Position numbers and translations under genes: made by a program. Below are positions 51,482-53,566 of a stretch of 64,000 nucleotides of DNA, piece by piece. How positions within the stretch are numbered: the stretch's first letter is position 1; each line of letters begins with the position of its first letter. Under the pieces are notes generated by a model, which was not told the origin of the DNA, ran no database searches, and was given only the letters and a program-made list of their open reading frames with translations. This DNA is from Heptranchias perlo. Its lineage: Eukaryota. Where the stretch lies: NCBI RefSeq assembly GCF_035084215.1, contig NC_090364.1:4588001-4652000 (forward strand), written 5' to 3'.

Positions 51482-53566
51482 TTAATCACTCTCCCCCAGG
51501 GTGAGCTTGTCAAACAGGTACACTCCCATGCCATTCTCAGGGGCTCCCAGTCTCTTCAGGTTGGTGATGTGATCTCCAAGCTTCTTGATCATCTTCACTT
51601 GTTCATCCAAGTAGTGGGTATCCAGGAAGTCACACAACTGGGAAAGGGAGATATTTTCATTAAGGCAGCTATTTGATCAGTTTATTGACCAAATTGCTTT
51701 TCAGGCATTCTGGATCTATTCACTTTCTCCTTCAAGAGATCACTCCCAATAAAAAATAATTGTCATTACACAAGTCAGCTCCTACTTCAAGCCTTCCCAT
51801 TCAGCTTTGTTTTCAGATCTCTGTTCCATATCTGCCCCTCACCAAAACTGGTATTAATTGCACAAGGCATTAAGGACTTACATGAGGGTCTGTCCTCTCA
51901 GTGGACAGTTTGTGCAGATCCAGCAGACTCTGGTTCACATCCTTCTCCATCTGCAGAGCTCTCTGCATCACCTCCAGACCATTGCTCCACTCATCCTGCT
52001 CTGGCTTCTGAAAAGTCAGAACATGTAAAATTCCATGAACATCTGATGCTCTCATGGCTAACTTCATGCAAGAATTGGAGTTATGGAGATATAGTTTATA
52101 CTCCAGATAACTGAACAAAGAAAGATGAGAATTCACCAAAACATATCAATACAAGAAATCACACCAAGTTCTGTTACATTTACAGCACAAAACAGACCAT
52201 TTAGCCCATCATGTGTTCCAGATTTGAGACAGAGGAATCCAAATTAATTCCACTGCCCTGCCTGTAAGCATAGACATGCAAGTATTATTGGTACCTGGAC
52301 CTCAAACAGCATGTAAAGGAGTTATGTTTTATTCTCATTGACTTGAGAATGTATCAGACATTGCAGTGTTTCCCTACTCCTCTAACTTGAGGTAAAGGAT
52401 GTATGACAATGTTATATTAATACCTCCACATAAGGACAATATCCTCTATAAACCCAATATTGCCACTTTCTCTACTCTGCCCCTTGAGAAAATGGTCTTT
52501 GGCCCAGGGTCAAACTATTCCCTCATCACAACAATCTTCTTAGCTTTTGTACCTCTTATCCCTATTGGTTTTAGCAAATTGCACTCAAGGAATTATATTT
52601 CAACCCTGGTCTGTTCCTCCAATGTCCTGCCATATCTACTTTTCAACTGTGGTCCAGTCACTCTTTCTCCACAGCTAACCTTGATATCCTCCAGGACAAT
52701 ACGGCCTCCACGTCGATTTTGGAATTTCATCAGTTTCTCAGCGTGCTCCCGTTTCTCATGCGACTGCTCCTTGAAAAACTTCGTAAAGTGACGCAGGGCA
52801 ACATTATCCCGGTCAAAGTAATAGGACTGGAGAGAATATTGAAAACAACGTGTCAGATCTAGATCTCACCTACATACAATTAATGCTGAACATTTCAGAA
52901 ATTAGATACCATTTGTTTACTAGTAAAATTCAATTTACTTCACAAGATGTTCAATAGCTTCCCCCTCCCCAACAGGATAATGAATGGATCAGAGAAAAGT
53001 AGCAATTAAGGTCAGGGATTATACTTAATCTCAACTCAACCTACTTTTAAGCAAGTTGTAACTCCTTTTACTCTATTCTAAAATTAGTAGGAGAACAAGA
53101 GACAATTCTCTCATTCCAGTAATTTCACATTCTACAATCATTCAGTGTAATAGAGATCTAGGAACAGTGAAGAAAGCTTCATCACTAGGATTCTCAAGGC
53201 AAGAAAATTCATGAGGACCTGTCAACATTTCACTGGCTAGTCACCCCATTGAAACTGAAAGTTGTCAAATGTTGACAAGCACTTGACCAGGTTTCTGCTC
53301 TTCTCTGACAAACTCAGGCAGCAGCTGAGCCAGGTTCACATATTAAACCCCTCAATAGAATGCAGCTGTTTCAAGGAGCAGTCCATTAACTCAACAAGAT
53401 CACCTTGTATTGCACACCAGAAATACTCATTGCCCCAAGATTTTTCTTCCCAGGGAGGTGAAACAAAACCAAGGGAAAGATAGGAGGAATAGAGCTCCAT
53501 ATTGATCTGCTTGTTGACACCATCCTCACACTCCTTGTGATAGTTCTGAGACACTTGGGACACCAT
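51482..53566 (-). pseudogene. Ferritin copy 9, divergent subtype (E59K), probable pseudogene
   Basis: Exon 1 from 53566 is deleted after ELYSSY (splice donor lost); exons 52826-52680, 52007-51882 and 51637-51482 are intact. TATA reads CATAAA. Introns 2-3 are unlike those of the other copies. Confidence 0.88.

Follow-up and report, generated by a model that had tools for sequence, protein, structure and literature searches.

Does the ferritin gene array of the shark Heptranchias perlo encode a second kind of subunit, deficient in ferroxidase activity, or are the copies that have lost a ferroxidase glutamate simply broken genes? The window in which the question arose (64,000 nucleotides; C43:4588001-4652000 of the 3.25-Gb genome) carries a four-exon ferritin gene in nine copies. 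A sequence-only reading of this window had noted lysine at residue 59 of copy 9 and asparagine at the same position of copy 4, versus glutamate elsewhere, and had proposed that an L-like, ferroxidase-deficient subunit arose inside the array, an idea to be given up if K/N59 occurred only in pseudogenes that are never expressed. It suggested a search of the rest of the array, of related genomes and of RNA, along with dN/dS analysis; the outcomes are described below.

Two damaged window copies share an altered ferroxidase residue

The other seven window copies encode E59, as had been stated, and alignment to the human H chain verified that residue 59 is equivalent to E62, the bridging ferroxidase ligand (Table 1). 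Copies 4 and 9 do share T49, K50, R72, and the distal part of intron 1. The caution that both copies are damaged was justified: copy 9 is missing the exon-1 splice donor and its RefSeq model is a rescued protein without helix A (P0251), and copy 4 has only 123 of the 147 nt of exon 2 and no exons 3-4. The E131D substitution reported for copy 9 is present (the protein reads LCDFLDTHY), but it does not mark the subtype since none of the eight intact copies of the same lineage, described below, carries it. An Rfam scan of the whole window (1-64000, nine copies) gave 0 hits at gathering score, and hence no iron-responsive element. The array switches strand within window positions 47000-55460, between copies 1-8 (plus) and copy 9 (minus), and an inverted 750-bp match flanks the switch (window 46997-47726 and 54598-55343).

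Table 1 Ferritin features of the window, in window coordinates
Feature	Position	Strand	Remarks
Copy 9, exon 2	52680..52826	-	Lineage-B haplotype: T49 K50 F51-TTT K59 M67 R72 V78
Copy 9, codon 59	52752..52754 (52754-52752 as read)	-	AAA (Lys) replacing GAA (Glu)
Copy 9, exon 1 (shortened)	53472..53566	-	Deletion of ~91 bp took its end and the splice donor
Copy 9, exon 3	51882..52007	-	E104 (= human E107) retained
Copy 9, exon 4	51482..51637	-	Q138 retained; private E131D at 51620-51622
Copy 4, exon 1	16273..16374	+	
Copy 4, exon 2	17106..17228	+	Lineage-B haplotype, N59 (AAC 17178-17180) and W60; ends after 123 nt
Ordinary (E59) ferritin copy 1	16..1912	+	
Ordinary (E59) ferritin copy 2	6046..7929	+	Served as exon reference
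Ordinary (E59) ferritin copy 3	11043..13255	+	
Ordinary (E59) ferritin copy 5	26833..28732	+	
Ordinary (E59) ferritin copy 6	31394..33209	+	
Ordinary (E59) ferritin copy 7	36244..38132	+	
Ordinary (E59) ferritin copy 8	42044..44236	+	

Extent of lineage B in the ferritin array

Every ferritin copy in C43:4.218-4.822 Mb was modelled, which yielded an array of 80 exon-2 copies (4.269-4.782 Mb); three further ferritin genes, all divergent, lie at 4.244-4.261 Mb. We defined lineage B by the exon-2 haplotype K50 (AAG) and F51 (TTT), leaving codon 59 out of the definition. The search of the rest of the array was productive: 13 of the 80 exon-2 copies belong to this lineage, with K59 in five, N59 in eight, and E59 in none. 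Outside lineage B, codon 59 is GAA in 61 copies and encodes lysine in five (four of them also H62D), and one copy, as modelled, is interrupted ahead of this codon. Open frames with GT-AG splice sites were found for 8/13 lineage-B copies (4 K and 4 N), 3/5 other K59 copies, and 57/62 ordinary copies. Genome-wide, a protein search in which 150 of 202 candidates were scored located further ferritin clusters on C38, C725, and C1048. A nucleotide pattern returned 14 K/N matches (13 on C43 and one on C9, the retrocopy described below) versus 134 E matches, the K/N pattern missing by design 5 of the 18 array K/N copies.

All 10 lineage-B copies with a complete exon 2 share the codons K50 AAG, F51 TTT, R72 CGA, and I77 ATT, so that we attribute the lineage to shared descent and not to chance. 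Exon 2 of lineage B lies at a distance of 0.124 from ordinary copies, versus 0.036 among ordinary copies; for exons 1, 3, and 4 the corresponding distances are 0.02-0.04, which do not exceed those among ordinary copies. Lineage B is a whole-gene lineage from the promoter through intron 2, the nearest neighbor of a member being another member in 12/13 cases for distal intron 1, 9/10 for intron 2, and 6/10 for intron 3. Its copies are located in the middle of the array, mostly one per 3-6 genes, and a TATA-like motif is present within 160 nt upstream of exon 1 in each of the 13. Nine E59 copies fall in the intron-1 clade of lineage B (FastTree 0.998), some with remnant lineage-B letters, which indicates that there is no absolute barrier to conversion. 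These related intron-1 lineages with an E59 exon 2, taken together with K59 in five copies outside lineage B, show that site 59 moves both ways.

A second sub-lineage of the array carries K59, H60, and D62 (HEKHED or QEKHED) and has thus lost two ligands; its copies at C43:4364075 and 4391759 are intact, and those at C43:4354705 and 4725616 are broken, as is a QEKHED copy on C38 (16521104). The D62 codon of lineage-B copy 4653430 is the same as in this sub-lineage, which suggests conversion between them. Adjoining the array, the divergent ferritin gene at C43:4257271-4261135 reads KQSYKEHEQAE (human E61K and H65Q), and its ferroxidase center is likely impaired. Throughout the array, the introns of different lineages align at only ~55-65% and the exons are 96-100% identical (e.g., window 6046-7929), a contrast that we read as exon-limited homogenization.

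Ferroxidase residues and predicted activity of lineage B

As expected of a 24-mer ferritin subunit, the protein matches belong to family PF00210, four exons with GT-AG sites are found in 8/13 lineage-B copies, and an intact K59 protein (P0332) is predicted to have the normal fold with five helices (pLDDT 89.5). In human numbering, the intact lineage-B copies retain E27, Y34, E61, E107, and Q141 in 8/8 cases and H65 in 7/8 (one has D); these residues are E24, Y31, E58, E104, Q138, and H62 of the array proteins. The set that characterizes ferroxidase-active H and M chains (E27, Y34, E61, E62, H65, E107, and Q141) is incomplete throughout lineage B, because position 62 is K or N in 13/13 copies.

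As described in passages of two reports, the classic ferroxidase-null mutant combines E62K with H65G (PMC4029007, PMC6929972). According to the FTHL17 passage of a review, this protein is inactive owing to E62K, which was "shown to be sufficient"; apart from E61D the remaining ligands are conserved, expression is in germ cells, and the mouse carries six copies (PMC7760355). By the precedents of FTHL17 and the E62K/H65G mutant, lineage B is likely to be ferroxidase-deficient: the K59 copies likely lack activity, and for the N59 copies we infer the same from the loss of the bridging carboxylate. A sponge provides another E62K case, according to a passage of PMC8395497, and we observed the substitution again in amniote L chains, marsupial FTHL17-like proteins, a lizard paralog, and an old shark family. 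E62K is a one-base change that has arisen many times among vertebrates, and this kind of change is already known. CpG decay, which accounts for R60W/Q/H and R76C, was rejected as the source of E59K on the basis of the codon context, GAG GAA.

Selection and damage

The suggested dN/dS analysis pointed to purifying selection. Distinct exon-2 variants of the eight intact lineage-B copies (14 N, one of them a counting artefact, and 11 S) gave an omega of 0.31 (p 0.0045 versus neutrality), and 56 ordinary copies gave 0.37 (Fisher p 0.81 versus lineage B); the counts are small and inflated by conversion, and the non-independence of array copies makes these p values, like that for damage below, optimistic. 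Pairwise exon-2 pN/pS was 0.29 within lineage B, 0.30 within ordinary copies, and 0.28 between them. Of 18 Glu positions, only 59 and 50 are changed in more than 6 of the 67 intact copies, and position 50 is also changed in lineage B. Damage affects 5/13 lineage-B copies versus 5/62 ordinary copies (Fisher p 0.011), three of the five in lineage B being one duplicated truncation. Helix B of lineage B has acquired the private substitutions H62D, A63T, S56L, R60W, and R76C.

Evidence for transcription of K59 genes

An intronless K59 retrocopy at C9:17349860-17350218 contains exons 1-2-3 plus the leader, and its eight best matches are all lineage-B copies. This spliced copy indicates that a K59 gene was transcribed and spliced in the germ line. 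A sequence with a reverse-transcriptase-like reading truncates the retrocopy. Processed (intronless) ferritin copies number at least nine in the genome, including that on C9 and others at C5:24822308-24822776, C30:6325816-6326322, and loci on C3 and C42 (L093-L099).

Five sequencing runs were examined, and the RNA status of all of them, X1 included, is a guess. Contig coverage in run X1 is confined to exon 2: the ~60 nt of intron at either side have zero depth, and loose ends run into exons 1 and 3. At 97% likeness 14 X1 contigs matched, and the three described next come from 8 of the 14. One of 49 nt (0 differences), spanning K59 to M67, fits the intact copy 4402377 or copy 9; another of 37 nt (0 differences), in which K50-F51 is joined to K59, fits in this assembly only the broken copy 9; and a third of 36 nt (1 difference) fits intact K copies. 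Lineage-B letters make up ~3% of the summed X1 contig depth at four diagnostic sites, a hint that the lineage contributes a minor share of X1 transcripts, although contig depth cannot rank genes. The RNA check was therefore positive for K59, with contigs in a presumed-RNA run. N59 letters were listed in no run at a 1% threshold, which does not show absence. The lineage-B haplotype was not seen among the listed contigs of X3 (1 contig) and X5 (17 contigs) at 84% likeness, and X4 gave 0 matching contigs at 97% likeness, neither result being evidence of silence. Run X2, from another organism, lacks the K50-type letter and shows some non-G first base at codon 59. Given eight intact genes, a spliced retrocopy, and presumed-RNA contigs, K/N59 is not confined to silent pseudogenes.

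Comparison with FTHL17, the L chain, and other ferritins

Lineage B resembles FTHL17 at the residue level and, judged by alignment and tree, belongs to neither the FTHL17 nor the L family. Features that it shares with FTHL17, as the latter is described in the review passage, are E62K, retention of most other ferroxidase residues, and multiple copies (in mouse); germ-cell expression of FTHL17 is matched by the germ-line transcription that the C9 retrocopy implies. Unlike FTHL17, lineage B is a member of the array clade and not an ortholog, has K or N at position 62, keeps E61, and contains introns. A marsupial protein (P0379) from a cluster named FTHL17-like is far from lineage B in our tree, which was built without eutherian FTHL17. 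Orthology to amniote FTL is contradicted by the nesting of lineage B in the Heptranchias array clade (99/95). With the human E62K/H65G(/K86Q) H-chain mutant, in the reported passages, the K59 copies have E62K in common; the mutant also has H65G, whereas lineage B keeps H65 in 7/8 copies.

The L chain possesses a K58-E103 salt bridge (L numbering) and a nucleation set of H49, E53, E56, E57, and E60, as a passage of PMC2603009 describes. K62 occurs with E107 in 4/8 intact lineage-B copies, where a K-E107 bridge is possible; the other four have N, which cannot form one, and an L-type bridge would thus not be maintained across the lineage. The L chain has lost the ligands at 27, H65, and Q141 (the mammalian L proteins compared combine K62 with G65 and E141 and lack Glu at 27), whereas lineage B keeps E27 and Q141 (8/8) and H65 (7/8). 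At the positions of the L nucleation set, lineage B has K50, E54, H57, E58, and E61, with no acid gained over its active neighbors: H57 stands where L has E56, the residues E54, E58, and E61 are common to all array copies, and E50K costs lineage B an acid that ordinary copies have. By these comparisons lineage B is not L-like beyond residue 62, and the original L-chain reading is only partly supported. Of the original proposal, what stands is that a second subtype is real and arose in the array; the L-likeness stops at that residue.

Ferritin expansion as such is already known in sharks. For the Greenland shark, a preprint reports 155 FTL copies, 179 FTH1 copies, and expression specific to the ovary (10.1101/2024.09.09.611499); these clusters are like the Heptranchias array in being a large, ancient tandem expansion; the passage in question counts FTL/FTH1 copies only, without ferroxidase residues or subtypes. 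The literature searched, with most subscription journals outside it, contained no description of E62K/N ferritins in sharks and, beyond the FTHL17 review, no work on single E62N or single E62/E58 mutants. As far as this incomplete search shows, the close active/dead pair and the shark-wide K62 family are new.

An older K62 family in sharks

Related genomes gave a divided answer. A second shark clade has K62 and E107 in 79/79 proteins sampled from 10 genera (Heptranchias, Heterodontus, Scyliorhinus, Mustelus, Carcharodon, Cetorhinus, Stegostoma, Rhincodon, Chiloscyllium, and Hemiscyllium), the proteins being samples of clusters and not full inventories; no member was found among the Pristiophorus, ray, and chimaera proteins sampled. 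Array-type proteins of other species, on the other hand, are non-E at position 62 in only 1/96 cases (N in Pristiophorus), so lineage B looks specific to the Heptranchias lineage, in a sample with no other hexanchiform by name. RefSeq annotates the K62 family as "middle/heavy subunit-like" (e.g., XP_067830304.1 and XP_059496503.1). Q141E is present in 49 of the 75 K62-family proteins with data and occurs in carpet sharks.

Within the 60 kb taken, four K62-family genes were found on C43 at 8397598-8408657 and 8693632-8703889 (L103-L108), all four by tblastn and two of them also by a nucleotide pattern. Their motifs are HEKRER, HEKREC, and HAKREC, with H65 replaced by R or C. This old family, partly on the same chromosome, could not be seen from the window alone. 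It is like lineage B in having E62K, in mostly retaining E27/Y34/E107, and, here, in its chromosome; it differs in forming a separate clade (99/94 and 100/100), in an exon 2 that is ~26% diverged, in often carrying extra changes, and in being far older. Monophyly of lineage B with the K62 clade (P0070/P0151/P0154) was marginally rejected (p-AU 0.0465, ligand columns removed). The placement of the family is itself unstable: it grouped with amniote L chains at 89/91 when all columns were used (LG+C20) and with the array clade at 86/88 when eight ligand columns were dropped (LG+G4), and the AU test rejected neither placement (p-AU 0.357 and 0.149). One of the trees excluded rows of <150 residues and four proteins that were partial or fused. 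Glycogen-synthase and TIP49 genes, neighbors of FTL in human, are also located on C43, and the whole C43 ferritin cluster may belong to the FTL/M paralogon. Teleost M is reported, in a passage of PMC4117605, to be orthologous to mammalian L. The K62 family is a better candidate than lineage B for an L-like role or shark light chain.

Interpretation of lineage B

We lean slightly toward regarding lineage B as a tolerated minority subunit, folded and ferroxidase-dead, in a highly redundant array. A single G-to-A substitution (GAA to AAA) would have come first, with AAA then probably changing to AAC in part of the lineage. Site 59 would be relaxed, plausibly since the ~130 active copies give surplus oxidizing capacity; selection would keep the four-helix fold and the other ligands and not require this site. 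Lineage B would have spread as a passenger of multi-gene duplications, its exon 2 staying distinct while exons 1, 3, and 4 were homogenized with other copies, presumably by gene conversion. The resulting subunits would enter 24-mer cages as a tolerated few among mostly active subunits; tolerance rather than benefit, co-assembly, and ovary expression are what we infer in this scheme. Some observations run against tolerance. Exon 2 resisted homogenization and residue 59 is non-Glu in 13/13 copies, as selection for inactivity would also give; so few Glu positions other than 59 change often (only 50, out of 18); and the higher damage rate of lineage B and of other K/N copies leans toward decay.

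The first of these observations would fit a young, selected subunit resembling the L chain or FTHL17, with dead subunits held in a set proportion and conversions back to E59 removed; the proposed benefit is that they would tune how iron mineralizes in egg ferritin, how stable its cages are, or how much peroxide it releases. We consider this possible but doubtful. It accords with K/N59 in every lineage-B copy, with the escape of exon 2 alone from homogenization, and with purifying selection as strong as in active copies, as well as with the existence of two intact copies of the K59/H62D sub-lineage (HEKHED), the recurrence of E62K in the amniote, marsupial, lizard, and old shark proteins noted above, and the retention of E104, with which K59 could bridge. 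Yet the second L-type change is absent, half of the intact copies have gone from K59 to N, and an acid is lost through E50K. Outside Heptranchias a single one of the 96 array-type proteins is non-E, the K/N pattern matches all lie on C43 save for the retrocopy (14 versus 134 E), damage is more frequent, and the older K62 family could already fill such a role.

That higher damage rate is what would be expected of an aging, crippled lineage on its way to pseudogenes, making little protein and owing its intact look to recent duplication and to gene conversion by active neighbors. The five damaged copies among 13, the near-identity of exons 1, 3, and 4 to ordinary copies, and the private helix-B substitutions are consistent with such decay, and the ~3% share of X1 contig depth is a weak hint in the same direction. 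We nevertheless judge it improbable, since the non-homogenized exon 2 has an omega of 0.31 with neutrality rejected, eight frames with TATA-like motifs are intact, and a spliced retrocopy and presumed-RNA contigs exist. The idea that gene conversion brought K59 in from the old K62 family (C43:8.4 and 8.7 Mb), to which the presence of K59 in both on one contig and the M67 and R72 common to lineage B and one old-family gene might point, was rejected as very improbable: exon 2 of lineage B is as distant from the old family (0.257-0.284) as that of ordinary copies (0.256-0.276), the Lys codon is AAA in lineage B versus AAG in the old family with neighboring synonymous sites not shared, and lineage B nests with the Heptranchias array proteins (99/95), the grouping of the old family with lineage B having a p-AU of 0.0465.

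Whether tolerated, as we prefer, or selected, lineage B bears on how ferroxidase loss begins. In the mammalian cases (L chain and FTHL17) several changes are already fixed, so the start of the loss is not seen; the active and E62K/E62N subunits here differ by few residues in one exon, and the effect of the first step on activity, on stability, and on mixed cages is thus directly measurable. A bolder proposal, which we put forward tentatively and hold to be rather unlikely, is that sharks, independently of mammals, evolved their own heavy/light system twice, the K62 family being a convergent egg-ferritin light chain (converging in carpet sharks on Q141E as well) and lineage B a recent replay of the first step that selection maintains in the face of gene conversion. 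If true, one genome with active, newly dead, and long-dead subunits would constitute a natural series for L-chain origin. The K62 family, found in 10 genera, often expanded, and annotated as "heavy/middle-like", may be the result that matters more. A large share of shark ferritin copies may be misjudged when they are counted as ferroxidase-active, for example in arguments about iron or longevity.

Additional features of the ferritin genes

Position 144 (human numbering) is M in 123/132 array proteins, versus the A/S/D of H and M chains, and within the GEYLFDK motif the E of other species is replaced by V in the Heptranchias copies. Five animal-type ferritins (P0309, P0312, P0040, P0049, and P0180) are filed as Salmonella, E. 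coli, or Aeromonas; one is identical to a white-shark protein, and these entries are likely database contamination. On C38 (9.64-17.72 Mb), C725, and C1048, dozens of ferritin cassettes of 2-4 genes are dispersed over 8 Mb, many of them with R60W (HEEWEH).
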